This document shows, piece by piece, positions 43 to 14,428 of a stretch of DNA of 16,789 nt. The notes below the pieces were generated by a model that had not been told where the DNA came from, did no database searches, and was given only the letters and a program-made list of their open reading frames with translations. How positions within the stretch are numbered: the first letter of the stretch is position 1; every line of letters begins with the position of its first letter. The stretch is from an uncultured bacterium. Its GTDB lineage: Bacteria; Zixibacteria; MSB-5A5; JAABVY01; JAHJOQ01. The translations under genes were made by a program, and so were the position numbers. The stretch is from NCBI GenBank assembly GCA_965369655.1, contig CBDUQR010000054.1:1-16789 (forward strand), given 5' to 3'.

Positions 43-235
43 GTTAGTACTAGTGTTGAAGCGATCTTTACCAGTTGTGGCAAAGTCATCAATCGAGGTC
101 CAGGACTCGAAGTGTCTGTCGTCTCCACAAGCGGGAAGATCAATGAGTCCATGTATAAGCTGATCATATGGAAGAGAATATATTTCTATGCAACAGTTCT
201 ACACGATCTAAATGCGTACTGACAGAGGTATCGAA

Positions 236-918: not shown

Positions 919-3903
919 CTATTTCATCAGTGCCATTTTCCTGACTTCGCTGCGCGATTCTGTCTGAAGGCGGTAGAAATAGATACCGGACGCGAGTCCT
1001 GATGCAGTCCAGCGCACCTTGTGCATACCCAGATCAAGATGCTTGTCGAGGAGAGTCTCGACCTTCTGTCCGAGAAGGTTGTAGATCGTCAGTTGCACAT
1101 GCTCTGATCGATCCAAGTAAAATTCGATGATAGTGGCGGGATTAAATGGGTTAGGATGGTTCTGATAAAGGGTGAAACGATTCGGGAGTTGGTCGTCAGC
1201 ATCATCCAGGTCGACATCGGTCGATATGCCTTCATACTTTGCTTTGGCCTGCGCGACAGAGGCTATCAGATCGTCCAGCGAGTCGGAGCCGATCACCGCG
1301 AACGCAACCTCGACCGTGTCGTCCGGAGCGAGCGTGAACGGACCGGTGGCGATCAGGTTCGAGTGGTCCGGATTGATGAGATACGATGAACTCGGATTGA
1401 TTCCGCCCGTCATGAAGCCCCATTTCTCAGCGTCGGTTCCGCCGTCACCGTCATACAGATAGTCGTAATTTTTCAACGCTCTGAACGATGTTGCGCCCAA
1501 CGTGTTGAGCACCGCGACGCCCCGGTAGTCGGGATTCTCGACAGAATCTGCGCTGAACATGTAGCCGATGTCCGCGTCCGAAATAAATCCAACCCGGTCA
1601 TCGTCCCCGGCTGTGTATGGATTGCCCCATGGCCAGTCCCAGTCGGAGAGAATACCGACATGAAGGTTTTCGATAGTCTGCGCGGTTGTGTTAGTGATTC
1701 GCAAAATCAGCAGGATGTAGTCGTCGTTTGTATCATCCACGTAAACAAGTGAATGTTGGTGGATCATTATGCCGATCGGGTTCTCCGCTTTGGAGTCATC
1801 GAACAGGCAGAAGCTCTCCTGGTCAGCGTATGTACCGTCTTCGATAAAGACGACATTGCCACCTGTAGCGACCTCAAAGTCGTTGTCGGAAACTCTGATC
1901 CTGTTTCGCGCCGCATCGGAGACATGTGTAGCATCGGATGCTACCAGCAGCGCCATCTCGTATAGATTGTTGCTGCCGGACCCGTTATACGGCCAGACAA
2001 AACCGGGCAGTCCGAGCTCGACAATACTGCTGTCGGCGAAACCGTACTGACCATAGTTGGAAAGCCCGAACATCACATTTCCGACGTCATGGGTGTACGT
2101 TGATCGTACGCTCGGCGGGTTCTCGCGGACCACGAATACGAGAGGAATACTATCGCTGTAATCGCCCAAATCGGAGACTGCGAGAGTAAACGTCAGTTCC
2201 TCCGCCTGCACGGCGGATTCGCTGACTACGATCCGGTACGGAGATGCGCTGTTGTCGGCGGAGCTGTCTTGCTGAATATTCCCGAACACCCAGAACGAAT
2301 CGAGCAGAGTGACATGTTCGTCATCCGACCGTAGAGTTGCCTCGACGTCCGCCAGACCGAGACCGGAATTGCTAAGTGTAATCTCGACATCAAGAGTGTC
2401 GCCCGGGTCGGGAGATGGCTCGGTGATCTCTGCTATGAAAATGTTGGGTGCATCGTTGGAATCCAAAGCCTCCAGCGCAGCTGGAATATAGATCATGCCG
2501 TGGCCCGATTTCATGTCGGGACCCGGATCATCGACGTCGATCGCAGTCTCCATGAGCGCTTTCTTGATCGAGTCTACAGGTGCATTCGGGTTGTACTCTC
2601 TCAGCAACGCGACCGCCCCTGCGACATGAGGGCAGGCCATCGAGGTTCCGGTGCTCCAGCCGTACGATCCATTTACCACCGGAATTGTCGACCTGATGCT
2701 GACACCCGGAGCGACAACCTGAGGTTTGAGCGAGACCTCATCGCAGTCTGACGGTCCCTGGGAGGACCGGGAATGCACCGGAAAGTCCGGGATGGTAGGG
2801 TAAACCATCCCAACCGCGAAAGAATTGTATTCAGATGATGCGCGGTTTGCTGGATTGCGTATCGTCATAGAGCCTTCGTTGCCTTCGTTTCCGCATGCGA
2901 AAATCACCACAACTCCGAGCGCCTCGAGATTGTCGATAGCATTCCAGAAGACATCTTCGCAGCCGAGCACACTTTGCTGATATCCCCACGAGTTGGCCAC
3001 CGCGTCGGGGACATCGGCGATTGTATTTGGATTGCCGTCAGGATCGGCAGCCCACTCGAAGGCGTCGAGTATGTTTCCGTTCGGTACGTCGACGACCGCT
3101 GCTGCGATCCACTGCGCATCGGGAGCCACCCCTACGGTATCGCCGGTAGCATCGTCATGCCCTACCATGGTGCCGAGCGTGTGAGTGCCGTGCTGCGGGT
3201 TTGACGAAGATGCGATCACATGTGGAACCGAATCGCCGTCGGCCGGATCAAACCAGCTTTCCTGCCAGGAATAGCCGTTGATGCCTCTCCATGAACCCGA
3301 AAGGGCCGGGTGCGCGCCGTCGACGCCTGTGTCGAAACTGCAAAGCAGTCTGCCCGCGCCGGTGTATCCAAGCACCCACATCGAATCGGCTCCGATCACC
3401 CTCAGAGACGACTCGACCGTATCGGATGGAGATGCGCCGCCTGTCGAGAATTCGACCGGCTCGATCAGTCGCGCGGCGCCGATCTGATGAATCGCCTCGA
3501 CATCGCCTCGCCGTGAAATCTCTCGAAGGATATTTCCTGATGCCTCTACGCTTACGATATTGTCGATCCAGTGGCTCTTGTAGCGCCTGACCTCGCCGGA
3601 CGTCACATTCGCTTCGAGGAATTCGAGCAGCTCTTTCTGCGTCTCGCTCGCCTTGTGTTTCAGATGCCGAATTCCGATAGCGTGACGAGCCTGTCTCGTG
3701 TAGCTGTCGAGTTGTAGAGATGCGGCAAGCCCTGTAGCCCTGGATTGATCTTTCATCGCGATGAAGGCGAAATGGAGTTGGCCTGGATCAGCGTCGATTT
3801 TGCTTAACAGATTCGCATCTATCTGCGCCGAGTTGATAGTCTGGCATATCAGAAGCGAGGCGAGCAGTATTGTGATCGTGTTGATAATTCTTCTCGACAG
3901 CAT
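919..3903 (-). CDS. Secreted S8 (subtilisin-like, bacillopeptidase F-like) serine peptidase with propeptide, Ig-like/beta domains and C-terminal T9SS type-A (FlgD-Ig-like) sorting domain
   Basis: Catalytic triad motifs FDTGVD, HGTHTLGT and GTSMACPHVAG; oxyanion GNEG; signal peptide MLSRRIINTITILLASLLIC; C-terminus NHPNPFNPATIIEF...IYNLLGQKV...LASGIYFYRL...RKMALMK. Start at 3903 has GGGAG upstream (ORF is open to 3963). Confidence 0.92.
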   Translation of the reverse strand: MLSRRIINTITILLASLLICQTINSAQIDANLLSKIDADPGQLHFAFIAMKDQSRATGLAASLQLDSYTRQARHAIGIRHLKHKASETQKELLEFLEANVTSGEVRRYKSHWIDNIVSVEASGNILREISRRGDVEAIHQIGAARLIEPVEFSTGGASPSDTVESSLRVIGADSMWVLGYTGAGRLLCSFDTGVDGAHPALSGSWRGINGYSWQESWFDPADGDSVPHVIASSSNPQHGTHTLGTMVGHDDATGDTVGVAPDAQWIAAAVVDVPNGNILDAFEWAADPDGNPNTIADVPDAVANSWGYQQSVLGCEDVFWNAIDNLEALGVVVIFACGNEGNEGSMTIRNPANRASSEYNSFAVGMVYPTIPDFPVHSRSSQGPSDCDEVSLKPQVVAPGVSIRSTIPVVNGSYGWSTGTSMACPHVAGAVALLREYNPNAPVDSIKKALMETAIDVDDPGPDMKSGHGMIYIPAALEALDSNDAPNIFIAEITEPSPDPGDTLDVEITLSNSGLGLADVEATLRSDDEHVTLLDSFWVFGNIQQDSSADNSASPYRIVVSESAVQAEELTFTLAVSDLGDYSDSIPLVFVVRENPPSVRSTYTHDVGNVMFGLSNYGQYGFADSSIVELGLPGFVWPYNGSGSNNLYEMALLVASDATHVSDAARNRIRVSDNDFEVATGGNVVFIEDGTYADQESFCLFDDSKAENPIGIMIHQHSLVYVDDTNDDYILLILRITNTTAQTIENLHVGILSDWDWPWGNPYTAGDDDRVGFISDADIGYMFSADSVENPDYRGVAVLNTLGATSFRALKNYDYLYDGDGGTDAEKWGFMTGGINPSSSYLINPDHSNLIATGPFTLAPDDTVEVAFAVIGSDSLDDLIASVAQAKAKYEGISTDVDLDDADDQLPNRFTLYQNHPNPFNPATIIEFYLDRSEHVQLTIYNLLGQKVETLLDKHLDLGMHKVRWTASGLASGIYFYRLQTESRSEVRKMALMK

Positions 3904-4073
3904 GTTAACATATCTCCCTGCACCCGAGCGTACGGAACGCATGTATACCTGCCCGGTACACATCCTATTTCCAATTACGCATATCTACAGCTAAGTTAGG
4001 TGGAAGTCGATTTGAATCAAGCGCTTTCTGAGAATCAAATCAATTTATGATTGCAGGTCAACCGGCCTGCCCC

Positions 4074-4416
4074 GTCCTGAGCTTCGCGAAGGGCCCGCTT
4101 AACCTGCATCGTTCCCGGCAGATCCTTCGAAGCTCAGGACTCGTGTCCAGAGGTTGTCCCATAAGTGCTAATGTACTTGAGTGGGAAGCTGACTCTGTCG
4201 CTCCCGCGGAGGCCCTTCGCTTTGCTCAGGATATCACGGGAGCCTATTTAACGATAACCCATTCAATAGATTCCCGCCTTCGCGGGAATGACCTCGCTTT
4301 CTTTCGCAAGCATGACCACCAACCTATCAGACCTTTTGGGACAGCCTCAGGACGTCTGCCGCCCACAATACATTCGAGAAACTGAGATCGCAGCGTCGCT
4401 CCTCGTGATGACAACA
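4074..4416. repeat. Composite REP-like palindromic repeat cluster (copy 1)
   Basis: Inverted pair GTCCTGAGCTTCGCGAAGG (4074-4092) / CCTTCGAAGCTCAGGAC (4124-4140); GATTCCCGCCTTCGCGGGAATGAC (4269-4292); GTCGCTCCTCGTGATGAC (4395-4412). Several blocks recur inverted at 11490-11617. Confidence 0.8.
4151..4347. mobile_element. Putative 197-bp non-autonomous MITE with 15-bp terminal inverted repeats and 3-bp CAG target duplication
   Basis: Left end AGGTTGTCCCATAAG (4151-4165) and right end CTTTTGGGACAGCCT (4333-4347) match 13/15 as inverted repeats. CAG flanks both sides (4148-4150, 4348-4350). The homologous repeat at about 11543-11583 lacks the insert. Confidence 0.65.
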
Positions 4417-4455: not shown

Positions 4456-5733
4456 CTAAAGCCTGTAGTCCAGACCGATGCTGATCAGCGAAAGACTGTT
4501 GTCGTTTTCGTCGAGGTCATGCGTTTCCCAGTCTGTCGATATCAGAACACTAAACCTTATCCCGTCGTATATCCGGATGTCTCCGAGGAGATTGAGTTGA
4601 TTGAGCATGTAGTCGGTGTAAAACATGTTTGATTCATTCGTGTAGTTGCGGCTGCCGATCCTGTGGGATGCGCTGAGCCAAAGTCCGGTGCCGACAGACA
4701 AATCAAAACCATACTCCACATCCGACTGGAGGTAGTCCTGCTGCTCGAAGTCTGATCGCCGTGACCAGAAGACAGCTAAGGACGGTTTCACGAAAACCTG
4801 GAGTCCGTCAGATATCGATCTGGTCACCGTGAACTCCGTGATGTTGTAGATATAGTCGAAGTTCACGACATCCTGAGTGTCATAGGCGACATACTCGAAC
4901 TGATTTCTCAAAGACGCACGCCAGCTTTCCGAAAAGATCGCGTACAGCTCGATTTCCAGATAGTCCTCCCAGGAATCGTCCAGATCGCCTTCCTTTTCGG
5001 CGAGGATTCGACTAAGCTCGTTGTCTAAACGTATCGTGGTAGAGAATGTCGGCGACCAGTCGAGTTGCATACGAAACCTGTGTTTGGTCAGATCGAGCCG
5101 AGTGGAGTCCCGTACGCTTCTGATATCGTTGCGGTATGTCACCGAGAACATGTCCGTCCACCCGAACTGCCGCTCGAATCCGACCGAGAATTTATTGTAG
5201 TTGTAATCGAAGATAAACTCGCCGGAACCGTCATATCTGACTATTTCGAAAGCGTCACGCGCCACGAAGAACAACCCATCGCTCAATTCAGGTTTGAAAC
5301 GAAATACTGCGACATTGGAGACATAGCCATTCCTGCTGGATGAATTGGCGTCGAGTACAGCCCTGGCGTCGAGTTTGTTACGGATTTCCAGTGAGCGATA
5401 CTTGCAGGTCGCTTCAAGACTGTTGCGCAGGTCATCTCCCGAACCGGTGAACGAATTGCCGATCCGAAGCGAATTCCCGGCGTCAGATGATTTGCTCCAC
5501 TCGATTGCCGCCCTGAGACGGTAGGCATTCAGTTCGTCGGAGTCCTGCTTCAGTGTGAGTATGGAGTCCTCGTCGAGCGTAAGCGTATCGATCAGGGAGA
5601 GGTAGTAGCCCTGAGTCATCTTGTCATAGCCTAACCCGACGGTGATATCGAGATTATCGTCTGCGAATGAGTCGTGCGCAGAAATGAGGAACAAACAGGT
5701 CGCGATCAGAATGAATAACCTGGCGGATTGCAT
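4456..5733 (-). CDS. Putative outer-membrane beta-barrel protein (hypothetical)
   Basis: Signal peptide ending ...HDSFA; many amphipathic aromatic-rich strands (FSVGFERQF, FRMQLDWS, VEYGFDLSV); C-terminal strand LISIGLDYRL resembles a beta-signal; AGGGG SD; 63 bp downstream of the 350-aa gene on the same strand. Confidence 0.72.
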   Translation of the reverse strand: MQSARLFILIATCLFLISAHDSFADDNLDITVGLGYDKMTQGYYLSLIDTLTLDEDSILTLKQDSDELNAYRLRAAIEWSKSSDAGNSLRIGNSFTGSGDDLRNSLEATCKYRSLEIRNKLDARAVLDANSSSRNGYVSNVAVFRFKPELSDGLFFVARDAFEIVRYDGSGEFIFDYNYNKFSVGFERQFGWTDMFSVTYRNDIRSVRDSTRLDLTKHRFRMQLDWSPTFSTTIRLDNELSRILAEKEGDLDDSWEDYLEIELYAIFSESWRASLRNQFEYVAYDTQDVVNFDYIYNITEFTVTRSISDGLQVFVKPSLAVFWSRRSDFEQQDYLQSDVEYGFDLSVGTGLWLSASHRIGSRNYTNESNMFYTDYMLNQLNLLGDIRIYDGIRFSVLISTDWETHDLDENDNSLSLISIGLDYRL

Positions 5734-5796
5734 TTGCCCCTACACCGATCCGTCATTATTCATACATATATTTCCCTGTCGAGCAACTCAGAGAGC

Positions 5797-6849
5797 CTAT
5801 CTGCCAGTCATCGACTCTGCTTTCAATATGAGGTCTCGGGCGGCTTTTGCCTCAACCATAGATGTTTGCAGGTTGTTCGACCGAAATGCCAGGGTAGCAT
5901 TTTCCTGATGGGCAATCGCAGTTTCAAGAATATCCGAAGCCCTGGAGTCAGGAGTGTCCGATAGAACATCCCGCAGCCTGTCGATAAGTCTCTGGTTCTG
6001 CTTCAGCAGCGTTTCGATACGATCAGGCTGGCTACTTCGCTCCATGATACCGAGGGCTCGCTTTGTGACGTCGCGAGCATTCATCGTTTGTTTGAGTGAT
6101 ACCCTGAACTTGCCTGTTGCCAGACTCTCCCAGGCTCTCAACTGAATATCCTCAGCATTCGTCAGGAGCTGTGAGACATTGCCGTTGGCGCCAAGTCGTA
6201 TGCTCTGCTCGCGCGCTTTGGAGATCAGATCATCGGTCTTGTCGAGCTCGCGGCGAGCACGGCCTTCATTGTCGATATTCGAGTTCGCCGCCGCAATGGC
6301 GCGTCTCGCGATGTCTCTGGCTTTCAGCGTCGCCTTGAACGCGATCCTGAGCCTGTTGCCCCTGAAGAATTCCATGGCTTCGGCCTGAGTCTTCCGTGAG
6401 GTCTCGTACAGAGAGGCCGCCTTGAGACTTCCTGACTCCGTGATGGCCTCGTCGGCTCGGGCAAGTATCTCATTCGTTCGTTCGAGCGCTCGCCGAACGA
6501 TAGCGTCATTTCTCTCAGATGATTTCAGGATCGCGACTGACCTGTTGACCTGGTCTCGCGCATACATAGTCAGTTTGTATGATTTGCGGAACATTCCCCG
6601 CCTGAAAGAGTCCTTTGCCTCGACCTGCAACCTGACCGCCTGGTCAAGGTGCTGATTCGCCATGATCGATCCCGCCTTTCGGGTGGCGTCGGCAGCTCTT
6701 TCGATCAACTGATCGGTCTTTTCGAGTTCGCGAATGAGATCCGATGCAAACTGCGCGGAAGCTGTCGAGAAGAACAGCACGGCGAGGAAGATTGCGGCGA
6801 TCAGCACTCCGATCTTTCTTTTGTGTAACGCTTCAGACTCAAACATCAT
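5797..6849 (-). CDS. Exported all-alpha protein with four tandem ~79-aa helical repeats (hypothetical)
   Basis: Signal peptide with ASA cleavage motif at residues 30-32; four aligned repeats; GGAG SD (true start may be the second ATG at 6846); directly downstream of a consensus sigma-54 promoter. Confidence 0.8.
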   Translation of the reverse strand: MMFESEALHKRKIGVLIAAIFLAVLFFSTASAQFASDLIRELEKTDQLIERAADATRKAGSIMANQHLDQAVRLQVEAKDSFRRGMFRKSYKLTMYARDQVNRSVAILKSSERNDAIVRRALERTNEILARADEAITESGSLKAASLYETSRKTQAEAMEFFRGNRLRIAFKATLKARDIARRAIAAANSNIDNEGRARRELDKTDDLISKAREQSIRLGANGNVSQLLTNAEDIQLRAWESLATGKFRVSLKQTMNARDVTKRALGIMERSSQPDRIETLLKQNQRLIDRLRDVLSDTPDSRASDILETAIAHQENATLAFRSNNLQTSMVEAKAARDLILKAESMTGR

Positions 6850-6885
6850 ATTCTCCGCTTGTTCTCATATCCGACCGATCAAGCT

Positions 6886-6901
6886 TGCAACAGGCGTGCC
6901 A
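6886..6901 (-). promoter_or_regulatory. Sigma-54 (-24/-12) promoter for the helical-repeat + beta-barrel operon
   Basis: Minus strand TGGCACG-CCTG-TTGCA is a perfect match to TGGCACG-N4-TTGCW and ends 36 bp upstream of the start codon. Confidence 0.9.
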
Positions 6902-7026
6902 GTTGGGAAAGGCATCGCGAATTTGAGTGGCGCATTGCATGACAACAGGTTGCGCAGATGCGTGGGTATCTCCCGGACTTCAGGTCGATCCGAGCCACCA
7001 TTCGTTGAACCATTGTGCACGCAATA

Positions 7027-7044
7027 TGTACGTACAGGTACACT
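7027..7044. promoter_or_regulatory. Putative enhancer (UAS) for the sigma-54 activator, TGTAC-N6-GTACA
   Basis: TGTACGTACAGGTACACT, 16/18 identical to 9725-9742; palindrome centre is about 134 bp from the -24 element at 6901. Confidence 0.7.
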
Positions 7045-8368
7045 ATTCAATTCCGTATTTCTCCAGCCGCGAGTAGAGCATCCTGCGAGTTATATTGAGC
7101 ATCTTCGCCGCTTTTGTCTTGTTGCCGTATGATTTCTTAAGCGCCTCAACAACAGCCTGCTTTTCGAGATCATCCAGGTTCAAGCTTTCGGTTCGTCTGA
7201 CATGGGGCTGCGCAGTCGGCTTGAACCGCAGCATCAGATGAGACGGCGTCAGTTCAGAGTCGGCTGCGAGTATGAGCGCTCGTTCGAGAATGTTCTTCAG
7301 TTCGCGCACATTGCCGGGCCAGTGGTACTCCATCAGCATCGAGATGATTTCGTCGGACAAACGCCCGCGACTGTAGCCGAGTTTCCGGCAGAAGTATTCT
7401 GCGAGTTCAGAAATGTCCTCTTTCCTCTCTGCGAGCGTCGGCATCAGTATTGGAAACACGTTCAATCTATAGTACAAATCCTCTCGAAAACTTCCGGCGT
7501 GCATGTCTTCTTCGAGGTCTCGGTTTGTCGCCGCGATGACTCTCGTGTCGATCTTGATCTCTTCGGTGCCGCCTACGCGAGTGATTTTCCATTGTTCGAT
7601 TGCGCGCAGCAGCTTCACCTGCACTGAAAGCTTGATTTCGCCGACTTCATCGAGAAACAGCGTGCCCTTGTCAGCCAGCTCGAATCTCCCGAGCTTCCGT
7701 TTCTGGGCGCCGGTGAACGCGCCCTTTTCGTGGCCGAACAGTTCGGATTCAAGCAATGTCTCGGTCAGCGCCGAGCAGTTGACAGCGATGAATGGGCCGT
7801 CGGATCGGTTCGACTTTTTGTGAATCAGGTTGGCGATCAACTCCTTGCCAGTGCCGGATTTGCCTAAGATCAGGACATTCGCATCGGTCCCTGCCACCTT
7901 CTCGACCATAGTGAGAAGTTCTCGCACCGATGGGCTGTCGCCGATGAACCGGTCGTATGACAGCGATTCGAGATCGCTTTCGAGCAGTTCCTGACGCGCT
8001 GCCTGTTTCTTTGATTTGAGTATCCGGTCTACAAGCAGGATCAACTCGTCGAGCGAAAAAGGCTTGATCAGGTAGTCGTATGCACCAGCTTTCATCGCCT
8101 GTACCGCCGACTCCGCGGATGCGAACGCTGTCATCATGATAACCTCGCAGTCGGGCGATGATTTCTTCGCCTCACGAAGGACATCGAGGCCGTCGGGCGG
8201 GTCCATCTTCAGGTCCGTGACGATGATATCGAACGGCATCCTTTCGATATTCGCCAACGCTTCTGTACCGGAATCGCATATCGTCAGGCTGTGACCCGCG
8301 TCCTCGAGTGCCCCTCCGACCAGGAATCCCATCTTTTGTTCGTCGTCGACTACAAGAATACGCGCCAT
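7043..8368 (-). CDS. Sigma-54-dependent two-component response regulator (NtrC/AtoC/ZraR family: REC-AAA+-Fis HTH)
   Basis: REC domain ILVVDDE...TDLKM...MMTAF...KPF; Walker A GKSGTGKE; ESELFGHEKGAFTGA; Walker B LFLDE; FREDLYYRLNV; WPGNVREL; C-terminal HTH GNKTKAAKMLNITRRMLYSRL. Confidence 0.96.
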   Translation of the reverse strand: MARILVVDDEQKMGFLVGGALEDAGHSLTICDSGTEALANIERMPFDIIVTDLKMDPPDGLDVLREAKKSSPDCEVIMMTAFASAESAVQAMKAGAYDYLIKPFSLDELILLVDRILKSKKQAARQELLESDLESLSYDRFIGDSPSVRELLTMVEKVAGTDANVLILGKSGTGKELIANLIHKKSNRSDGPFIAVNCSALTETLLESELFGHEKGAFTGAQKRKLGRFELADKGTLFLDEVGEIKLSVQVKLLRAIEQWKITRVGGTEEIKIDTRVIAATNRDLEEDMHAGSFREDLYYRLNVFPILMPTLAERKEDISELAEYFCRKLGYSRGRLSDEIISMLMEYHWPGNVRELKNILERALILAADSELTPSHLMLRFKPTAQPHVRRTESLNLDDLEKQAVVEALKKSYGNKTKAAKMLNITRRMLYSRLEKYGIE

Positions 8369-8371
8369 ATT

Positions 8372-9682
8372 CTAATCTCCAGCCGGAAGGGTTATTGTCG
8401 CAATTGTGCCTTTTCCCGGTTTGGATCGCAGAGCCAGACGTCCCCCGTGCGCCTCGGCGACGTTTTTTGCGACATACAGGCCAAGACCCGATCCCTTCTC
8501 CCGGGTTGTGACGAACGGTTCGAGGACTCTTTCGATGTCCTTCTCTTTTATGCCGTGACCTTCGTCTGCGATCTCAATTCTGATGTTGTCATCACTTTTT
8601 ATCAGGATAATCTCGATTCCGCCGCCATCCGGCTGAGCATCCCTGGCGTTAAGCATCAGATTGAGTACCGCCTGTCTGATCGCGAAACGGTCGGCCTGTG
8701 TCGAGAACGATCCGTTAGCCGGTTCGCATCTCATCCGGACGGTTACTCTCGCATCTCTAAAATCTGCTCTGGTTTGATTCACAAGCGTTTCGATCGTTTC
8801 GCGCAGGTCGACACGTTCGCGCTTTTCGCTCACAGGATGAACGAAATCGAGATAGCCTGAGACCACGCTGTTTAACCGCGTGACCTCGTCTGAGATGAAA
8901 TCAAAGATCGGATCCTGCGAATCCGCGGCATATTTCTTCTTAATCCTTTCGGCGCTGTTCTTGATGATGCCGAGCGGGTTTCGTATCTCGTGAGCGATTG
9001 TGGCGGCCATCTCGCCCATAGATGAGATGGCGGATGCGCGAAGAAGCGCCTGCTGTGTCATCAGAAGCTTCCTGTTGATCACGAGAAATGCAAACACGAA
9101 CAGCACCACGAGCCCTGCGCTGACCGCGTTCGCGGCTATGATATTCCTTCGAAAGTCATCGATTGTGGAGAAAAACTCGTATCCCGCCTCGGCTCCGATG
9201 ACCGCAATTACACTATCGGATATATCGGTCACAGGCGCGTACGCCGACAGAAGATAGAGGCTGTCTGAGCGATATATCTGCGTCACGGCGGGAATCCCTG
9301 CGCTCGCCGAGACGAACTCCGAGAGGTGGAGAATTTCGTCTGTCTGAATCGAATCAGACTCGTCATAAAAGTCCAATCCATCCGGGTCATATATGTTAAG
9401 ACTCATCAGCGCGTTGACGTCCCGGACTTCGTCGAGAAGCAGAAGGATGCCGACATATTGATCGAGAGCCATCGATTCGCCCGCAAACAGACCATCTGTC
9501 AATGATCCGGCGCGCCTCGCGGTCGACTCCGCAATCGCCAGAAGTTCCTGCGAAACTCGCTCCTCGGCGAATGACTTCATGCGAACATACAGGTACCACT
9601 GGCTTAGATTGAGGAAGACGAGAAGCAGAAAGCCAAATGCAGCGACTGCGATTGTGATTTTCCTGCCAAGAGCAAGCCTCAT
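8372..9682 (-). CDS. Membrane-bound sensor histidine kinase (two TM segments, periplasmic sensor, HisKA + HATPase_c)
   Basis: H-box AHEIRNPL, N-box NLMLNARDA, G1 DEGHGI, F-box PFVTT, G2 GSGLGL; two hydrophobic segments flank an extracytoplasmic domain of about 145 aa; ends 3 bp before the regulator start. Confidence 0.95.
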   Translation of the reverse strand: MRLALGRKITIAVAAFGFLLLVFLNLSQWYLYVRMKSFAEERVSQELLAIAESTARRAGSLTDGLFAGESMALDQYVGILLLLDEVRDVNALMSLNIYDPDGLDFYDESDSIQTDEILHLSEFVSASAGIPAVTQIYRSDSLYLLSAYAPVTDISDSVIAVIGAEAGYEFFSTIDDFRRNIIAANAVSAGLVVLFVFAFLVINRKLLMTQQALLRASAISSMGEMAATIAHEIRNPLGIIKNSAERIKKKYAADSQDPIFDFISDEVTRLNSVVSGYLDFVHPVSEKRERVDLRETIETLVNQTRADFRDARVTVRMRCEPANGSFSTQADRFAIRQAVLNLMLNARDAQPDGGGIEIILIKSDDNIRIEIADEGHGIKEKDIERVLEPFVTTREKGSGLGLYVAKNVAEAHGGRLALRSKPGKGTIATITLPAGD

Positions 9683-9688
9683 AGCCGA

Positions 9689-9717
9689 AAGATAATGAGA
9701 TTAGGATTACTTGACAA
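9689..9717 (-). promoter_or_regulatory. Putative sigma-70 promoter for the kinase-regulator operon, probably leaderless
   Basis: Minus strand TTGTCA-N17-TATCTT-N6-ATG(9682); no SD in front of the ATG. Confidence 0.5.
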
Positions 9718-9724
9718 CAACAAC

Positions 9725-9742
9725 TGTACGTAAATGTACACT
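9725..9742. promoter_or_regulatory. Putative enhancer (UAS) for the sigma-54 activator, TGTAC-N6-GTACA
   Basis: TGTACGTAAATGTACACT, 16/18 identical to 7027-7044; centre is about 136 bp from the -24 element at 9869. A weaker copy, cGTGC-N6-GTACA, lies at 9768-9783. Confidence 0.7.
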
Positions 9743-9868
9743 TGAGCGCATTCAGGCGATCTGTGATCGTGCAGTCAGGTACAAATCATCGTTTTGACTT
9801 CTCCTGCTGCCAGTAGCGATTTCTGTAATCGATTGACACATATACGATTCTCGATGTAATGCTCGGTT

Positions 9869-9884
9869 TGGCACGGTAGTCGCA
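9869..9884 (+). promoter_or_regulatory. Sigma-54 (-24/-12) promoter for the lipoprotein gene
   Basis: TGGCACG-GTAG-TCGCA, with GG-N10-GC conserved and one mismatch to consensus, 52 bp upstream of ATG 9937. Confidence 0.8.
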
Positions 9885-9936
9885 GTACGCTTCGGCAGAA
9901 GAGACGAACAATGCCAGATATTAACAGGAGGTCAAG

Positions 9937-11082
9937 ATGAAAAGGTTTTTCTTTCTCGTAGTTCTTTCAGCAATGGTTGGTGCGCTCCTTGTTGCGGGTT
10001 GCACGAAGGAATCGGGACCGGTCACATCGGACGAAGCGGGCCTGAACTTCGAGGATGATTTCGGCGGCTATGATGCCTCGAATGAGGCTCCCGGATTTGG
10101 AGACGAGATAATTCTCAGCGAGATGTCTGAGGATGCTGAGGTTGCAGTCGATGACCCGGAATTCGCAAGTCAGTTTGCCACACTCGACACCCTTCCGATT
10201 GTCCGCGTCTATGCGATGAAAATCCTGTGGGGAATGCTCGAGTTCGATTCGACAGTGACAGAGGTGACAGACTGGTCGGGATCGCTCTCGATCGAACACG
10301 GCGCCATCAGGATTGCGAGCCTGATCAGATTCGAGAGACCGGGCGATCACATAGTCAGGCCGCGCACAGATTGCAGCAAGCTCGAGTGGGTATCATACAC
10401 AACTCTGCACTTCGACGGAATACTCGTGTGGCTGTATGATCTGTCGGACAGTATGGGCCTGACTGCGAACAGTGTCACATTCGAGACCGGACCATACAGC
10501 AGAACATTTGATATTTCCGAACTCGATTCGCTCTCCGAAATCATCGAAGTCATCGAAGTCGACGAACTCGGAAACAAGGTTTCATTCGAAGCGCGCTATC
10601 TGCCGACGCCTGACTGCGAATATGGCTTCCTTGATGGAAGATGGGTCATCAAAGATGACGATCGTGGAGTGTTCTTCGGGCGCTGGGTGAACTGGAGCGG
10701 TATGGCGATGGGACATCTCCGTGGCCACTGGGGAATCGATAACGCCGGTGAAAAAGTCTTCTTCGGAAAATGGATTGGTTGCGGCGGAGAATTCAGAGGC
10801 CTGCTGAGAGGTACCTGGGATTATGGAGTGGAAGCCTGTGTCGATTGCCCGCCCGCAGGAACATTCCGCGGTGTATGGGCCGACAGGAACAGAGTGGTGA
10901 AAGGCGGTCTCGGTGGACGATGGGCATCATGTCTCGGGTCACGCGATAATGACACCGGCAACACCGATAACGGCGGCAATGGCAATATGGGTGGCATGAA
11001 CAACGAGATCGGCGGCATCCCGGATCGTCACTGCGGATTCTTCCATGGCCGATGGAACAAGTTCTGCCCGGAAGTGGATTAG
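9937..11082 (+). CDS. Lipoprotein with acidic N-terminal region and C-terminal Gly/Trp beta-repeat domain (hypothetical)
   Basis: AGGAGG SD; MKR + hydrophobic core + lipobox LVAG-C; eight G-x-[FL]-x-G-x-W repeats; eight additional Cys. Confidence 0.85.
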   Translation: MKRFFFLVVLSAMVGALLVAGCTKESGPVTSDEAGLNFEDDFGGYDASNEAPGFGDEIILSEMSEDAEVAVDDPEFASQFATLDTLPIVRVYAMKILWGMLEFDSTVTEVTDWSGSLSIEHGAIRIASLIRFERPGDHIVRPRTDCSKLEWVSYTTLHFDGILVWLYDLSDSMGLTANSVTFETGPYSRTFDISELDSLSEIIEVIEVDELGNKVSFEARYLPTPDCEYGFLDGRWVIKDDDRGVFFGRWVNWSGMAMGHLRGHWGIDNAGEKVFFGKWIGCGGEFRGLLRGTWDYGVEACVDCPPAGTFRGVWADRNRVVKGGLGGRWASCLGSRDNDTGNTDNGGNGNMGGMNNEIGGIPDRHCGFFHGRWNKFCPEVD

Positions 11083-11115
11083 CACTCTCCCTTGCATTCC
11101 TTTCTATATAGATCA

Positions 11116-11141
11116 ACAGCCCGTCTGCTAAGGCGGGCTGT
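11116..11141 (+). terminator. Hairpin after the lipoprotein gene (possible terminator or stabiliser)
   Basis: ACAGCCCGTCT-GCTA-AGGCGGGCTGT, an 11-bp stem with one G-U pair; weak U tract. Confidence 0.5.
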
Positions 11142-11211
11142 CCGCGTTAATGCTTACTGCGCGGTTGAATTTATCGCCGTGTGGATTGTATTTTGTTTGG
11201 AGGTGAGAAAG

Positions 11212-11418
11212 ATGAGTATGGAAGAATGCCCGAAATGTGGATGCACAGAGATCGACAGCGGTTGGATTCTGAGCGCCGGGAAAATCGCCTATAAATCGGA
11301 CAAGCAGAGATATCCCATGACCGGCGGTAACTGCAGAACATACGCCTGCACCAACTGCGGATACATCGAATCCTACGTTGATGTGAGCTATCTGGACAAG
11401 AGCAATCCCCGCCCATAG
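11212..11418 (+). CDS. Small zinc-ribbon protein (68 aa, CxxC...CxxC)
   Basis: GGAGGTG SD before ATG 11212; MSMEECPKCG...YACTNCGYIESY, two CxxC knuckles typical of small Zn-ribbon proteins. Confidence 0.8.
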   Translation: MSMEECPKCGCTEIDSGWILSAGKIAYKSDKQRYPMTGGNCRTYACTNCGYIESYVDVSYLDKSNPRP

Positions 11419-11489
11419 TGGACTTCCGCGATCTGTCCGGTGGCCCACCCCTTGGGACTTGTTGAAAAACCTATTTGGGCGTGGGGCTG

Positions 11490-11617
11490 TGTTGTCGTCA
11501 TCACGAGGAGCGACAGCGACGTGGTGATCTCAGTTCATGCAATGTGGGCGGCAGACCTCCCGGCAAGTCCTGAGCTTCGAAGGGCAAGCCCTGAGCCTCG
11601 AAGTATCTGCCGCGCAC
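11490..11617. repeat. Composite REP-like palindromic repeat cluster (copy 2, inverted relative to copy 1)
   Basis: Exact reverse-complement matches to copy 1: 11497-11514 = 4395-4412 (18 bp), 11526-11535 = 4380-4389, 11543-11556 = 4354-4367 (14 bp), 11566-11583 = 4124-4141 (18 bp). Internal inverted repeat GTGGGCGGCAGA...TCTGCCGCGCAC. Confidence 0.8.
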
Positions 11618-11665
11618 GGAAGATCAAGGAAGAGAGATTATCGGGGAATTCGCATCGATGATCAG

Positions 11666-11702
11666 AAAGAAAAAAGAGACCGGTTTTATACCGGTCTCTT
11701 TC
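11666..11702 (-). terminator. Intrinsic terminator of the RRM gene, probably bidirectional
   Basis: AAAGAGACCGGT-TTTAT-ACCGGTCTCTTT perfect stem with an A-tract on the left (U-tract on the minus strand) and TTT on the right; lies between convergent genes. Confidence 0.85.
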
Positions 11703-11748
11703 AAATACGGTGAACTGCTGTCTTTACCAGCAGGAGAACCGTCGTTTG

Positions 11749-12042
11749 TTACCAGGATCGGTTACGATAGCCGCCTCGACCGCCGCCGCCACCTCTATCC
11801 TCGCGCTGGCGGGCTTCGTTGACCTTCAACGTGCGTCCATCGAGCTCCTGGTCATTCAGACCGGCGATGGCTGCAGTAGCCTCGCTCTGATCGGACATCT
11901 CGACAAAGGCAAAGCCTCTTGGTCTCCCAGTGTCTCTGTCCGTAATCATGTTTACTTCTGTGACTTCGCCATAACTCTCAAATGCCTGGCGTAACTTCTC
12001 TTCCGTCGCGTCAAACGACAGATTGCCAATGTAGATTTTCAT
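11749..12042 (-). CDS. Single-RRM RNA-binding protein with Gly/Arg-rich tail (bacterial Rbp/RNP-1 family)
   Basis: RNP2 IYIGNL, RNP1 RGFAFVEM, LDGRTLKVNEA, C-terminal RGGGGGRGGY; GGAG SD. Confidence 0.95.
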   Translation of the reverse strand: MKIYIGNLSFDATEEKLRQAFESYGEVTEVNMITDRDTGRPRGFAFVEMSDQSEATAAIAGLNDQELDGRTLKVNEARQREDRGGGGGRGGYRNRSW

Positions 12043-12200
12043 TCTACACTCCGTGGTTGCTTATCCCGAAGTGAACTGCGTTCCGATGAAGTCAGATACT
12101 TCAAGATAAATGACATGTTGCGCATGATTGCGCGATCAATTCGAGATTACGCTTCAGCGGAGAGTTGTAGATTAGGACAAGACTACGATAAAACTCGAAC
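12043..12200 (-). promoter_or_regulatory. Structured 5' leader of the RRM gene with possible anti-SD pairing
   Basis: In the mRNA, UCUACA(ACU)CUCCG (12171-12158) can pair with CGGAGUGUAGA (12053-12043) over the SD. Internal 12-bp stem 12061-12072/12098-12109 and GCGCA-AUCA-UGCGC hairpin. Confidence 0.45.
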
Positions 12201-12310
12201 TCAAATCAATACTAAGTATTGACTATATCGGATGTTTCAACAAAAACCTACAATTATTTTTGCAAAATGCAATTTATTTTTCGTCAGGTGGTCCACCCCC
12301 TGGGCTCCAG

Positions 12311-13093
12311 CTATGGAGCTGACCACAGCACTTTTCCTTCTTTATCAAACAGCACCAATGATGAAGCTGACCTTGACGTAACGTTGCCTGTACTAATCGT
12401 CTCCAGCGAAGTACAGCCCATAGTTGCTCTAATCACTTCGTTTGTATCGACAATGTCAACTGAAGGGAACTCTTCATTGCGTAATACGGATGCCAATCTC
12501 ACGGCTCCGTTAGTATCGGCAATAAACATACCTCTCTTTTTGCCAAATAAACCAAGCCCTAAAACTATCTTATCGCCATAAGAGAAACAAGCCTGGCTGG
12601 AATGTATCCCTAAGCTGTATTCGGATGCATTTCCATCATTCATTTTCAGATGTGCCCCAATTTCGTCTACAATCACTTCAAATTGCGGATTAGAGGACTT
12701 TCCGATGCTTAGGCCGAGGCCCTCTTCACTTGCAGCCATGAAGACGGATGCACTGTCTGATCTTTCGAGCTGGATATACGGTCCATGCACTGGAACCAAT
12801 CCAAGCATAAGAGGTGTGAGGTCCTTTTCTGTATCGATAAATTCCAGACTGGGGAGGCCATTATACTCCCCAAGGATTGCCACAGTCTTACCTTGTTCAT
12901 CGACTACTTTCAGTTCACGTACAGAGATAACGTCTTCAATCTGGCCATTAGTCGCTTGGACTGGATGCCCCGACAACATACCTCCAATAAAACCAGCAGC
13001 CATCGCAAGAAACAAGAAAGTCAATCTTCCAAGAACAGGTCCGCATATTGTCTCTCGAATACTTGTCAACTTTCGCCACATTTCTTTCCGCAT
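12311..13093 (-). CDS. Hypothetical membrane-anchored or exported beta-rich protein
   Basis: GAGG SD; N-terminal hydrophobic segment LTFLFLAMAAGFIGGML; recurring hydrophobic-D-x-x-G-K/R beta-hairpin motifs (VVDEQGK, IADTNGA, LFDKEGK); AT-richer than the flanks. Confidence 0.7.
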   Translation of the reverse strand: MRKEMWRKLTSIRETICGPVLGRLTFLFLAMAAGFIGGMLSGHPVQATNGQIEDVISVRELKVVDEQGKTVAILGEYNGLPSLEFIDTEKDLTPLMLGLVPVHGPYIQLERSDSASVFMAASEEGLGLSIGKSSNPQFEVIVDEIGAHLKMNDGNASEYSLGIHSSQACFSYGDKIVLGLGLFGKKRGMFIADTNGAVRLASVLRNEEFPSVDIVDTNEVIRATMGCTSLETISTGNVTSRSASSLVLFDKEGKVLWSAP

Positions 13094-13202
13094 AGCCTAT
13101 CCTCTCTCCTTCTGCAGTGTTAATTCAATCACGGTTACTATATGTAGAAACCGTAGCTGTCCACTCGGTTCCAGTGTACCACCAACCAACGAACAGATTA
13201 CT

Positions 13203-14363
13203 CTATTCTGATAAACTGTCATCGTCTTTGCTCTCCCGATCATGTTTCTTAATGGATTCAATGAAAGGTTTCATGAAACTGATCACTTCTTCGTCAGATT
13301 TTGATGTCTTGGTTGGCGAAGTATCATTTGTAATTGTCTTGCGATACTTGAGCCACAGCTTGATGGTATTAGATTTTGGAAGAGCGGCAATAATGGTCTC
13401 TCTATTCATTCTGCATCCGCTAACAGTTCCATTAGGAATACCGCGCAGAATCTCAAGAATACTACTTAGGTCATTCTTCAGTTCTTGACTTTTCACGAAC
13501 TTCTGGTCATCGTTGAGAAACACAGGGGCGAACTGTTCATGGAACTTGTCGCCTGAAGAAAACACCATACAAAATGGCAAATAGAAAACATATTCCACAT
13601 CAATTAAGTTCGTTCTGCGAGTACCCAAGAGTGATAGCGATACCCCTGTGAGAAATGTCGCGTAAACCCAATAGCAGTAGTAGGCGTAAGGAGCGAACTT
13701 ATGTAAGTTGGGCATTCCGTTGTTGAGCCACCTATTATGAATCTTCGTTTGGAGATCTTGATCAACTGTAACCATCTCTAAGCAGGTCTTGAGGTGCCGT
13801 AAACCCCATGCCGGATCGTCCTTTTGGATCGACTGTGCGAGTAAGGATGCAGAATCTGTCAGATCAGATTTGCCCAGAACGCCAGTCATGTCACGCCTAA
13901 AATTCCGGATGAGTGGTTCCAAGTCGATTTCAGTGATCAGGTTTCGTCGTTCCTTAGCCCACGAAGTGTCTCCTTCAGAGAAATCCTTGCTAATCCACCT
14001 TCTTAATCTACTCGAACCTTGATCTTCATCAGAGTATATGAAAGGTCTGCCATCGGACGTTGTCATAGCTTTTCCGTCAATCCTTATTGGTTGCTGTTTC
14101 ATAGGGATTTCCTGTCCCAGAAGGCACAAGACTAGCATCTCGGCGAACGAGGAATTCGGTCGTGCGTTTGGATGACAGAGTCGCTCAGCTAACTGGGTTA
14201 TACCCGCTTTCCCTTTTCGCCTTTCAGTTTGAACCATATCTGTCTGCAACTCCAGCACTAGAACCGGAGGGATTACAACCGTGAAAAACTCATGCAGTAC
14301 TTTTACTTCATCATCTGATAGGCACTCCAAGACCGACTTATCAATTAGAATCGATGGTTTCAT
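13203..14363 (-). CDS. Hypothetical protein with PIN-like nuclease signature
   Basis: N-terminal ILIDKS (Asp after first strand), PPVLVLEL (Glu), later NLIDVEY and FSSGDK acidic motifs in PIN-like order; GGAG SD; AT-richer than the flanks. Confidence 0.65.
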   Translation of the reverse strand: MKPSILIDKSVLECLSDDEVKVLHEFFTVVIPPVLVLELQTDMVQTERRKGKAGITQLAERLCHPNARPNSSFAEMLVLCLLGQEIPMKQQPIRIDGKAMTTSDGRPFIYSDEDQGSSRLRRWISKDFSEGDTSWAKERRNLITEIDLEPLIRNFRRDMTGVLGKSDLTDSASLLAQSIQKDDPAWGLRHLKTCLEMVTVDQDLQTKIHNRWLNNGMPNLHKFAPYAYYCYWVYATFLTGVSLSLLGTRRTNLIDVEYVFYLPFCMVFSSGDKFHEQFAPVFLNDDQKFVKSQELKNDLSSILEILRGIPNGTVSGCRMNRETIIAALPKSNTIKLWLKYRKTITNDTSPTKTSKSDEEVISFMKPFIESIKKHDRESKDDDSLSE

Positions 14364-14428
14364 TCAATGAACTCCACTTAATCCCCAATATAATTCACGA
14401 CTAACAACATTCGCAAGTCAAGTCATCC

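Follow-up and report, generated by a model that had tools for sequence, protein, structure and literature searches.

Several described systems share features with the locus analysed here, among them ZraSR-ZraP, through which Enterobacteria respond to envelope stress in a zinc-dependent manner. ZraR activates two divergent sigma-54 promoters, those of zraP and of zraSR, and ZraP is described as a periplasmic chaperone (PMC4987338). Slam combines a periplasmic TPR domain with an outer-membrane barrel, its gene lies beside those of its lipoprotein substrates, and these substrates have in common a C-terminal eight-stranded barrel that follows a handle domain (PMC5449769). Like ZraSR-ZraP as described in that account, the present locus pairs a sensor histidine kinase (HK) and an NtrC-type activator with an adjacent, putatively activator-dependent sigma-54 promoter and a predicted secreted periplasmic helical protein (PMC4987338). 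As in Slam-mediated type XI secretion, there is genomic linkage between a periplasmic module of helical repeats, a barrel for the outer membrane and a lipoprotein whose N-terminal part is handle-like and whose C-terminal part is an eight-stranded barrel; however, the Slam account reports the system from Proteobacteria only, whereas the present module occurs in Zixibacteria and allied phyla (PMC5449769).

The window, i.e., the whole stretch of DNA that was analysed, is an entire contig of 16,789 nt from a Zixibacteria-type genome of 2.99 Mb, in which rpoN was also found. The first-pass annotation had placed the kinase and the activator between two outward-facing sigma-54 promoters, and we recovered every one of these elements in its place. 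What the present analysis adds is one perfect palindrome common to both promoters, 141 or 144 bp upstream. The features are as follows, with RR denoting the response regulator.

4456-5733, minus strand: outer-membrane beta-barrel gene (ORF, 425 aa), second in the sigma-54 operon
5797-6849, minus strand: helical-protein gene (ORF, 350 aa), first in the sigma-54 operon
6901-6886, minus strand: putative sigma-54 promoter P1, TGGCACGCCTGTTGCA, 0 mismatches to TGGCAC-N5-TTGCW, 52 bp before the start codon (ATG) of the helical gene
7006-7021, no strand: a possible second RR site of degenerate sequence (3 mismatches), spotted by eye at 21 bp from UAS1
7027-7042, no strand: putative enhancer palindrome UAS1, TGTAC-N6-GTACA, immediately next to the RR stop codon and 141 bp ahead of P1
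7043-8368, minus strand: RR gene, NtrC-type (bacterial enhancer-binding protein; ORF, 441 aa)
8372-9682, minus strand: HK gene (ORF, 436 aa)
9689-9717, minus strand: weak candidate for a sigma-70-like promoter of the HK-RR operon, 9/12 matches, abutting UAS2
9725-9740, no strand: putative enhancer palindrome UAS2, TGTACGTAAATGTACA, 144 bp upstream of P2
9768-9783, no strand: CGTGCAGTCAGGTACA, read from the sequence as a probable second RR site with 2 mismatches, at a distance of 43 bp from UAS2
9869-9884, plus strand: putative sigma-54 promoter P2, TGGCACGGTAGTCGCA, 1 mismatch, 68 bp before the start codon (ATG) of the lipoprotein gene
9937-11082, plus strand: lipoprotein gene (ORF, 381 aa)
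11672-11702, no strand: hairpin with a 13-bp stem and a T tail, a likely terminator that would end the lipoprotein transcription unit

The RR is built of REC, AAA+ and Fis-type HTH domains (Pfam Response_reg, 1.9e-26; Sigma54_activat, 1.8e-71; AAA_lid_14; HTH_8), and a GAFTGA loop was read in its translation. It scores under the curated NCBIfam cut-offs for AtoC, NtrC and ZraR. The HK has HisKA and HATPase_c domains, and its translation predicts two transmembrane helices flanking a periplasmic domain of ~150 residues, for which no Pfam match was found. The window scan found no sigma-54 site upstream of the HK-RR operon. The sigma-70-like candidate at 9689-9717 is a lead only, since sites of this quality are as frequent in the region as expected by chance.

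At up to two mismatches the sigma-54 motif has 7 matches in the window versus 6.4 expected by chance, so its count in the window alone is not significant. The perfect consensus, however, occurs only three times in the 2.99-Mb genome, P1 being one of these sites. Perfect TGTAC-N6-GTACA palindromes number only four genome-wide; two are UAS1 and UAS2, and the remaining two lie more than 400 bp from any sigma-54-like site. A perfect palindrome and a good sigma-54 site occur together at P1 and P2 and nowhere else in the genome. A relaxed scan for palindrome-promoter pairs returned three, namely P1, P2 and one weak pair, which suggests that this genome holds no other convincing target. TGT-N10-ACA is the NifA site. 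The palindrome fits this pattern and also resembles NifA and NtrC enhancers in its position ~100-150 bp upstream of the -24/-12 element, often with two sites. However, the activator here is a REC-domain response regulator, whereas NifA is a GAF-domain protein, and the half-site in its extended form, TGTAC, is peculiar to the present regulon.

The same elements were found in relatives, where a palindrome and a YGGCAC-N5-TTG site stand upstream of the helical and of the lipoprotein genes alike; in several of them the -12 element has TTGAT or TTGTT in place of TTGC. The position of UAS1 is kept, for example in loci L014, L017, L020, L021, L024, L026, L029 and L003. A second site with at most one mismatch lies 20-22 bp away in L014, L015 and L027, and the 43-bp spacing seen at UAS2 recurs in L014 and L015. 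A palindrome-promoter pair was present in 46/77 lipoprotein upstream regions versus 8/1341 control ORF upstream regions and 74/5000 random windows; the remaining 31/77 had no pair by the criteria applied. The lipoprotein gene is unlinked in most sampled lineages, and unlinked copies often retain palindrome and promoter. Of five genomes without the helical and barrel genes, four also have neither element upstream of the lipoprotein gene, the exception being genome G084, which kept them in the absence of the helical-barrel cluster. Paralogous lipoprotein copies have neither palindrome nor promoter.

In all 21 assessable loci the barrel gene comes immediately after the helical gene, and the order RR-helical-barrel was seen in 18 helical-seeded loci and in five closed genomes. 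Loci L116 and L104 show an alternative order, HK-RR-helical-barrel-lipoprotein. The arrangement as a whole is conserved in Zixibacteria and in allied uncultured phyla. When the effectors were searched for across genomes, a check that the first-pass annotation had proposed, they were found to co-occur: among 201 genomes of the phylum, 118 have lipoprotein and helical protein, 28 the lipoprotein only, 8 the helical protein only and 47 neither, although these counts overstate the support because related genomes are non-independent samples. Because 28 of the 146 genomes with the lipoprotein have it in the absence of the helical and barrel genes (the barrel profile was also applied to five of the 28), the three effectors do not form an obligate complex. 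The earlier interpretation is supported in part: kinase, activator and two outward-facing promoters make up one conserved regulatory unit, but the lipoprotein gene is detachable. The scanned neighbouring ORFs at locus L048 include one for a UDP-GlcNAc 2-epimerase.

No Pfam or NCBIfam family was found for any of the three effectors, in agreement with their earlier description as uncharacterised. The helical protein has a Sec signal peptide (...ASAQ), which marks it as secreted, and self-alignment bears out the four helical repeats noted before, each of ~80 residues. Its 23 relatives gave weak Pfam matches to HEPN (8 relatives, best 1.1e-7), DUF1771 (7), YfdX (4) and DUF4398 (3), and the sole matches in a PDB profile search were to designed helical repeats and to MIT domains. 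The barrel protein likewise carries a signal peptide, and its AlphaFold2 model (pLDDT 86.4; 20 strands by DSSP) has no plug domain. Foldseek matched the model to BtuB, OmpG and Occ barrels (E ~1e-8, probability 1.0), and in VIA-align MtrB, BtuB, FptA, OccAB4, MOMP and AlgE were tied at Z 17-18.6. By its predicted structure the fold is of the outer-membrane type, as had been proposed, and the tied matches single out no particular barrel family. Relatives fall into 505 representative clusters at E<=1e-3 (167-477 aa among the 150 listed) with a consensus C-terminus ...GLDYRF; no Pfam family was found in 24 + 22 members.

The lipoprotein has the lipobox LVAGC, with the lipidation cysteine at position 22, and a conserved motif FGGY..DE.P.FGD. 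Its AlphaFold2 model (pLDDT 86.7) shows a beta-sandwich (~85-223) followed by an eight-stranded Gly/Trp meander barrel (~227-379); structural matches reach Z 6-7.6, inside the stated noise range of the tool. Seven of the eight Gly/Trp repeats counted previously fit G-x-x-x-G-x-[WFY], and the eighth is a variant, VFFGKW. The label Cys-rich suits this protein, with nine cysteines, but not its relatives: C22 is present in 60/60 and C227 and C377 in 53/60 each, whereas the other six are shared with 1 to 11 of 60. Signal peptides, lipobox and the outer-membrane-type barrel model fit an envelope localisation of all three effectors.

We consider unlikely an envelope-stress module of the Zra/Cpx kind, with the helical protein acting as a chaperone in the periplasm, as a feedback modulator of the HK (the part that ZraP plays for ZraS) or as both, and with barrel and lipoprotein as stress-induced envelope components. 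The best NCBIfam matches include ZraS for the HK (1.8e-49) and ZraR for the RR (5.7e-119), the secreted helical protein is encoded first behind the RR, and 4/23 of its relatives have the weak YfdX matches. However, the scores fall far under the curated cut-offs (398 vs 760 for ZraR, 169 vs 479 for ZraS), and the regulators are not orthologues. ZraP is a small protein, whereas the helical protein has 350 aa in four repeats and its translation contains no Cys; nor do ZraP, CpxP or Spy appear among the 25 listed of the 88 Pfam families matched by the 23 helical relatives, which leaves the earlier metal-stress reading unsupported. The module also differs from ZraSR-ZraP, the precedent named in the first-pass annotation, in having two further targets, barrel and lipoprotein, and in that its kinase-regulator operon, unlike zraSR, has no sigma-54 site of its own.

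Still more doubtful is a Slam/T11SS- or MtrCAB-like route in which barrel and helical partner export the lipoprotein or hold it at the surface. The parts parallel those of Slam, L116 and L104 have the lipoprotein gene immediately behind the barrel gene, and barrel residues 31-70 are the most conserved yet the least confidently modelled. TbpB, LbpB, fHbp, HpuA and HphA barrels are among the lipoprotein matches, but at Z 5.8-6.7 they lie within noise. DUF560, the family of Slam, was found in 0/24 barrel relatives at E<=1, the barrel has ~20 strands versus 14 in Slam, the helical part is a separate protein, and the lipoprotein also occurs alone. The porin-cytochrome complex MtrCAB has the same topology, in which a barrel, a partner in the periplasm and a lipoprotein are combined, and MtrB is the nominal top barrel match (Z 18.6), although barrels of TonB-dependent receptors and Occ porins tie with it; MtrB has more strands. 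No CXXCH haem motif was read in the translations, so an Mtr-type conduit was ruled out. Helical scaffolds combined with porins also serve as exporters in AlgK/AlgE, PelB, PgaA and BcsC, and the barrel matches include AlgE (Z 17.1), 4y25, a polysaccharide secretin of PgaA type (Z 14.5), and PelBC (Z 12.6). In the ESM Atlas, clusters with the automatic name TPR protein lie near the helical protein (score 0.93). However, these barrel matches are tied with many unrelated barrels, a TPR family is matched by only 2/23 helical relatives, and the scanned ORFs beside the module or beside unlinked lipoprotein genes include no synthase, which makes an exopolysaccharide-type export pore highly improbable.

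The best explanation, to which we give about an even chance, is a conserved sigma-54 two-component regulon that switches on an outer-membrane channel, its periplasmic partner and a ligand-binding lipoprotein. Its regulatory logic is well supported by cis-elements, gene content, conservation and co-occurrence; RR binding to the palindrome, sigma-54 dependence, localisation, protein contacts, signal and cargo are what we infer. Following the established NtrC-type mechanism, the membrane HK would sense through its periplasmic domain and phosphorylate the RR, which would bind TGTAC-N6-GTACA ~140 bp upstream of P1 and P2, probably at two sites each, oligomerise and, by way of its GAFTGA loop, spend ATP on opening the promoter complexes. 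P1 would then express the operon of the secreted four-repeat helical protein and the plug-less ~20-strand barrel, and P2 the monocistronic outer-membrane lipoprotein with its beta-sandwich and eight-stranded soluble barrel. Substrate-sensing sigma-54 systems such as DctBD follow a similar logic. Judged from fold class and context, the most likely physiological role would be that of a signal-induced outer-membrane channel complex, in which the channel works with its periplasmic helical partner, together with a ligand-binding lipoprotein, whose predicted barrel is of a general kind seen in several ligand-binding proteins. With channel and lipoprotein induced, the module would therefore alter what crosses or binds at the outer membrane.

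Five genes lie within positions 4456 to 11082 of the window, which is an entire contig (C54, 16,789 bp); its source genome (2.99 Mb, 100 contigs) is rated 99.5% complete. The source names on close homologues of the window proteins are candidate division Zixibacteria and Zixiibacteriota.

Genes of the two-component region (position in the window, strand, product, basis)
8372-9682, minus strand, histidine kinase (HK), HisKA and HATPase_c domains (Pfam)
7043-8368, minus strand, response regulator (RR), Pfam domains and GAFTGA in the translation
5797-6849, minus strand, helical protein, 350 aa, ORF
4456-5733, minus strand, barrel protein, 425 aa, ORF
9937-11082, plus strand, lipoprotein, 381 aa, ORF divergent from the kinase gene

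The response regulator matches Response_reg (PF00072, 1.9e-26), Sigma54_activat (PF00158, 1.8e-71), AAA_lid_14 (PF25601, 1.7e-21) and HTH_8 (PF02954, 1.1e-11) in Pfam. It has the receiver domain, the sigma-54 AAA+ domain with GAFTGA and the C-terminal Fis-type helix-turn-helix of the NtrC family. The top three NCBIfam models were AtoC, NtrC and ZraR, and the protein was rejected as an equivalog of each (426 bits against a cut-off of 714, 409 against 558.6 and 398 against 760). Because these scores fall far under the curated cut-offs, we regard it as an NtrC-family enhancer-binding protein with no named orthologue. The genome encodes rpoN (411 bits, above the cut-off). The N-terminal 205 residues of the kinase, which include its predicted periplasmic domain (about 32-179), gave no match in a Pfam scan at E<=5, and the sigma-70-like site 5' of the kinase gene is of a quality no better than chance.

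The first-pass annotation had placed two outward-facing sigma-54 promoters around the kinase and activator genes, and predicted sites are indeed found there. P1, the predicted promoter of the helical-barrel operon (TGGCACGCCTGTTGCA, 6901-6886, minus strand), has 0 mismatches to TGGCAC-N5-TTGCW, and P2, that of the lipoprotein gene (TGGCACGGTAGTCGCA, 9869-9884, plus strand), has 1. The window holds 7 matches at <=2 mismatches versus 6.4 expected by chance, so the motif count alone is uninformative; the predicted sites gain weight from their quality, placement and conservation in relatives. Only 3 perfect sites occur genome-wide, P1 among them. The distance from promoter to start codon is 52 bp for P1 and 68 bp for P2, and GGAG-type ribosome-binding sites, read from the sequence, precede both start codons. 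Each predicted site combines the motif, GG at -24 and GC at -12 with a gene downstream and rpoN in the genome.

A perfect palindrome, TGTAC-N6-GTACA, lies directly after the response regulator stop codon (UAS1, 7027-7042), and a second perfect copy lies at 9725-9740 (UAS2); they begin 141 and 144 bp, respectively, upstream of the start of the promoter motif. This shared enhancer palindrome is an addition to the first-pass observation. Only 4 perfect copies exist in the genome, and no sigma-54-like site lies within 400 bp of the other two (contigs C22 and C35). With relaxed criteria (a palindrome with <=1 mismatch located 60-200 bp upstream of GGCA[CTG]-N5-[TTG/CTG/TCG]), scanning the genome on both strands yielded 3 palindrome-promoter pairs, namely the two window pairs and one on contig C15 that is weak in both elements. 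Therefore, the predicted regulon consists of P1 and P2, in agreement with the earlier description of the module as self-contained. Degenerate second sites are present at 7006-7021 (21 bp from UAS1) and 9768-9783 (43 bp from UAS2), and relatives have better sites at the same spacings, suggesting that two activator dimers may bind per promoter. The palindrome has the form TGT-N10-ACA, which is a NifA-type site. The cis-element evidence that regulation follows the established NtrC/NifA scheme is strong.

The gene block of kinase, regulator, helical protein and barrel protein (the cluster) is well kept in relatives. With the helical protein as query, homologues were found in 19 of 41 genomes of the class. 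In each of the 18 fetched loci, the helical gene is preceded on its own strand by a response regulator homologue (47-84% identical). The two genes are directly adjacent in 17 of these; in locus L025 (genome G019) a gap of 5.7 kb separates them, with an inserted 1011-aa ORF (positions 9360-12395 of the locus, plus strand) that carries a trypsin-like peptidase domain. Across 23 loci, comprising the helical-seeded loci and the closed genomes, profile HMMs built from many of the same sequences (L020, L022, L025 and L051-L055 not among them) place the barrel gene immediately behind the helical gene in 21, and contig ends truncate the remaining two. The five closed or near-closed genomes have one cluster each. 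Upstream of the helical gene, relatives carry the palindrome and a YGGCAC-N5-TTG site; the exceptions are L018, L025 and L030, which have no palindrome at <=1 mismatch. In many relatives among L016-L026, L032-L050 and L056-L135, the -12 element of the presumed sigma-54 promoter upstream of helical and lipoprotein genes is TTGAT, TTGTT or TTGAC, not TTGC, with GGCAC kept at -24, and this may be a lineage-typical variant.

The lipoprotein gene changes its location but not its control elements. In 11 of the 23 loci (the G019 case being deduced from coordinates) it stands next to the kinase gene in divergent orientation, and only 3 of 20 lipoprotein-seeded loci, four of which were picked as second, weaker copies, have the kinase or regulator gene beside it. 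The five closed genomes have it 0.3 to 2.6 Mb from the cluster. Unlinked copies keep the palindrome 90-145 bp upstream of a sigma-54-type site, clearly so in L032, L035, L037, L041 and L050. We further collected eighty loci from a species-wide genome collection, with 77 usable lipoprotein upstream regions. Their labels, which are the submitters' own for metagenome-assembled genomes and not always consistent, include Zixiibacteriota, KSB1/Zhuqueibacterota, Latescibacterota, Krumholzibacteriia, Eisenbacteria, Fibrobacteraceae and Gemmatimonas; the public label of L058, L060, L061 and L066 is 'uncultured Ignavibacteria'. The palindrome-promoter pair was present in 46 of the 77 regions. Among the controls, it occurred in 8 of 1341 regions upstream of the remaining ORFs of these loci and in 74 of 5000 random windows. 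In L116 and L104, on contigs labelled 'uncultured Fibrobacteraceae', the kinase, regulator, helical, barrel and lipoprotein genes follow one another on one strand, with the palindrome between the barrel and lipoprotein genes; this gene order is a second, independent linkage. The weaker lipoprotein paralogues L038 and L044-L046 have neither palindrome nor sigma-54 site. Many genomes hold two to four lipoprotein-family matches, and L043 (contig C5 of genome G139) is a tandem pair. Where the lipoprotein gene is unlinked, it is flanked by housekeeping genes (DprA, UPF0029, PfkB and PAP2) that give no functional hint.

In a phylum sample of 201 genomes, the lipoprotein profile matched 146 and the helical profile 126; 118 genomes have both proteins, 28 only the lipoprotein, 8 only the helical protein and 47 neither, counts that we read as a pattern and not by a statistical test because related genomes are not independent. 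Four of the 8 helical-only genomes have weak partial matches, and in another helical-only genome (G004) the cluster contig is cut inside the regulator gene, upstream of the expected position of the lipoprotein gene. Families f4, f7, f9, f12 and f14 lack both proteins throughout. In five lipoprotein-only genomes that are 96-100% complete, the barrel protein is absent too; upstream of their lipoprotein genes, four have neither palindrome nor promoter, and one (G084) has both.

None of the three target proteins belongs to a Pfam family (E<=0.01 for the helical protein) or an NCBIfam family, as the first reading had supposed in assigning them to no characterised family. The helical protein has a Sec-type signal peptide ending in ASAQ, followed by four repeats of ~80 residues with the common pattern ELxKTDxLIxRA ... 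Q..A ... T..ARD...RA. Its 23 relatives gave weak matches to generic helical hairpins (HEPN 8, DUF1771 7, YfdX 4 and DUF4398 3). A PDB profile search found designed repeats and MIT domains only, and the ESM Atlas returned only unnamed or 'TPR' clusters and a lead to OmpL37 at 0.85.

The AlphaFold2 model of the barrel protein (24-row alignment, pLDDT 86.4) has about 20 strands and no plug. Foldseek matched it to many outer-membrane barrels at probability 1.0, and VIA-align gave Z-scores of 18.6 for MtrB, 18.0 for BtuB, 17.9 for FptA, 17.6 for OccAB4, 17.5 for MOMP and 17.1 for AlgE. The model matches many outer-membrane barrels equally well; a PDB sequence-profile search found nothing. Of 24 relatives, 11 have F as their last residue and six more end in ...FR; the window protein ends in L. 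The signal peptide, the closed antiparallel barrel of the model and the C-terminal aromatic beta-signal mark the family as predicted outer-membrane beta-barrels. It comprises 505 representative clusters at E<=1e-3, and the 150 listed are 167-477 aa long, most about 420; all 22 sampled members lack a Pfam family. A TonB-dependent transporter was rejected. Such a transporter has a 22-stranded barrel, an N-terminal plug and a TonB box, whereas the window barrel has no plug in the model, has no Plug or TonB_dep_Rec match in Pfam, and aligns structurally with only the barrel part of BtuB, FptA and FecA. The best conserved segment (majority frequency 0.55-0.70) is residues 31-70 (window 5524-5643), a loop and helix between strands 1 and 2; the model is least confident there (pLDDT 52-65), and the segment may be a partner-dependent element.

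The lipoprotein has a signal peptide ending in a lipobox (...LLVAGC, residues 17-22) whose Cys22 is invariant in 60 of 60 relatives, the marks of a bacterial lipoprotein. The motif FGGY..DE.P.FGD, at residues 42-56, is near-invariant. In the model, residues 85-223 form a beta-sandwich (C2-like matches, Z about 6.5-7) and residues 227-379 an eight-stranded meander barrel made up of eight Gly/Trp hairpin motifs. C227 and C377, each found in 53 of 60 relatives, probably form a disulfide across the barrel ends, since both sit just outside the first and last strands (E229-240 and E367-375). Structural matches, all at Z <=7.6 and inside the noise range of the tool, include de novo barrels, avidin, TbpB, LbpB, fHbp, HpuA and HphA; the barrels of TbpB, LbpB, fHbp and HpuA score 5.8-6.7, likewise within noise. 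A PDB sequence-profile search and the ESM Atlas (best score 0.78) returned nothing, and Foldseek gave no match at E<=0.001.

Around the five genes, the stretch downstream of the barrel gene encodes an S8 subtilase of 1014 aa (919-3963, minus strand) that carries a T9SS sorting domain at its C-terminus. The family relatives L014, L015 and L027 have full-length orthologues, 52-58% identical, at the corresponding place. Like the ORF inserted in L025, the subtilase is a secreted-type protease next to the module. Proteins with T9SS tails occur near the cluster in 7 of 23 loci versus ~4 expected (37 such genes in 3 Mb), and we do not treat this proximity as meaningful. A YiiX-type permuted papain-like C92 enzyme (212-886, plus strand; NCBIfam 1e-58, under its cut-off) and a YifB Mg-chelatase-like AAA ATPase (14429-15964, minus strand; 642 bits, above its cut-off) flank the region and appear to be ordinary housekeeping neighbours. 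Of two small candidate ORFs, neither with a family match, one of 108 aa (11092-11418, plus strand) occupies the gap that follows the lipoprotein gene and the other, of 112 aa (4047-4385, plus strand), the gap that follows the barrel gene. A low-GC stretch at about 11900-14400 (0.43-0.45 versus 0.51-0.56 elsewhere) may be acquired DNA; its two minus-strand ORFs, 12311-13093 (260 aa) and 13203-14363 (386 aa), had no Pfam, NCBIfam or PADLOC match. A PADLOC scan of five flanking ORFs gave no match, and a search for tRNA genes found none.

We prefer the reading of a signal-induced channel with a helical partner and a lipoprotein of a ligand-binding class, and put its chances at about even. A periplasmic signal would induce the outer-membrane channel, and the same signal would induce the channel's periplasmic helical partner and a co-regulated lipoprotein of a ligand-binding fold class; we infer this physiological part. 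A Zra-like envelope-stress module seems unlikely. ZraP, CpxP and Spy chaperones are marked by membership of the CpxP-like (LTXXQ) family, and a chaperone of this kind is absent among the 25 families listed of 88 matched by the 23 relatives of the helical protein at E<=1. Metal stress was likewise rejected as a reading, since the translated helical protein is free of Cys and the listed matches include no ZraP family. A polysaccharide-export pore is the least probable of the readings, a slim chance only.

A Slam- or Mtr-like machine for surface display is improbable, more so than the Zra-like module. The barrel and its helical partner would then be an unrecognised, non-DUF560 translocon or holder that displays the lipoprotein, an analogue of Slam/T11SS or MtrCAB with contacts through barrel residues 31-70 and FGGY..DE.P.FGD, and this specific form we consider just as doubtful. 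Its hosts would be Zixibacteria and allied FCB-type phyla and its switch a dedicated sigma-54 two-component system, which is no likelier. Of all the readings, display bears the strongest architectural resemblance to a described system, namely Slam, a 14-stranded DUF560 barrel fused to an N-terminal TPR domain (PMC5449769). However, 0 of 24 barrel relatives match DUF560 at E<=1, the window barrel has more strands, and the helical module is a separate gene. A Slam-dependent TbpB-like lipoprotein has a lipobox, a handle domain and a C-terminal eight-stranded barrel; in the window protein, the lipobox and a model with a sandwich and an eight-stranded barrel go together with matches to such barrels that stay within noise. 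The occurrence of lipoproteins without the barrel also argues against display.

The module is controlled by a familiar type of logic. Our searches of the literature and of family and structure libraries gave no earlier description of the enhancer site, the regulon or the three target families; we found no paper joining Zixibacteria with sigma-54, and nothing relevant on Zixibacteria, lipoproteins and the outer membrane. Zixibacteria and their neighbours (KSB1/Zhuqueibacterota, Latescibacterota, Krumholzibacteriota and Eisenbacteria) are uncultured groups with an essentially undescribed envelope biology. The module offers a complete, testable regulon, from sensor and activator through a 16-bp enhancer site and two promoters to three target families unnamed in databases. 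Most families of the phylum have kept it, and its cis-elements are also found outside the phylum. Should the three proteins form a trans-outer-membrane complex, they would represent a new way to build or use the outer membrane in bacteria other than Proteobacteria; if they do not, the module would be a clean case of a small sigma-54 regulon whose integrity survives the dispersal of its genes.
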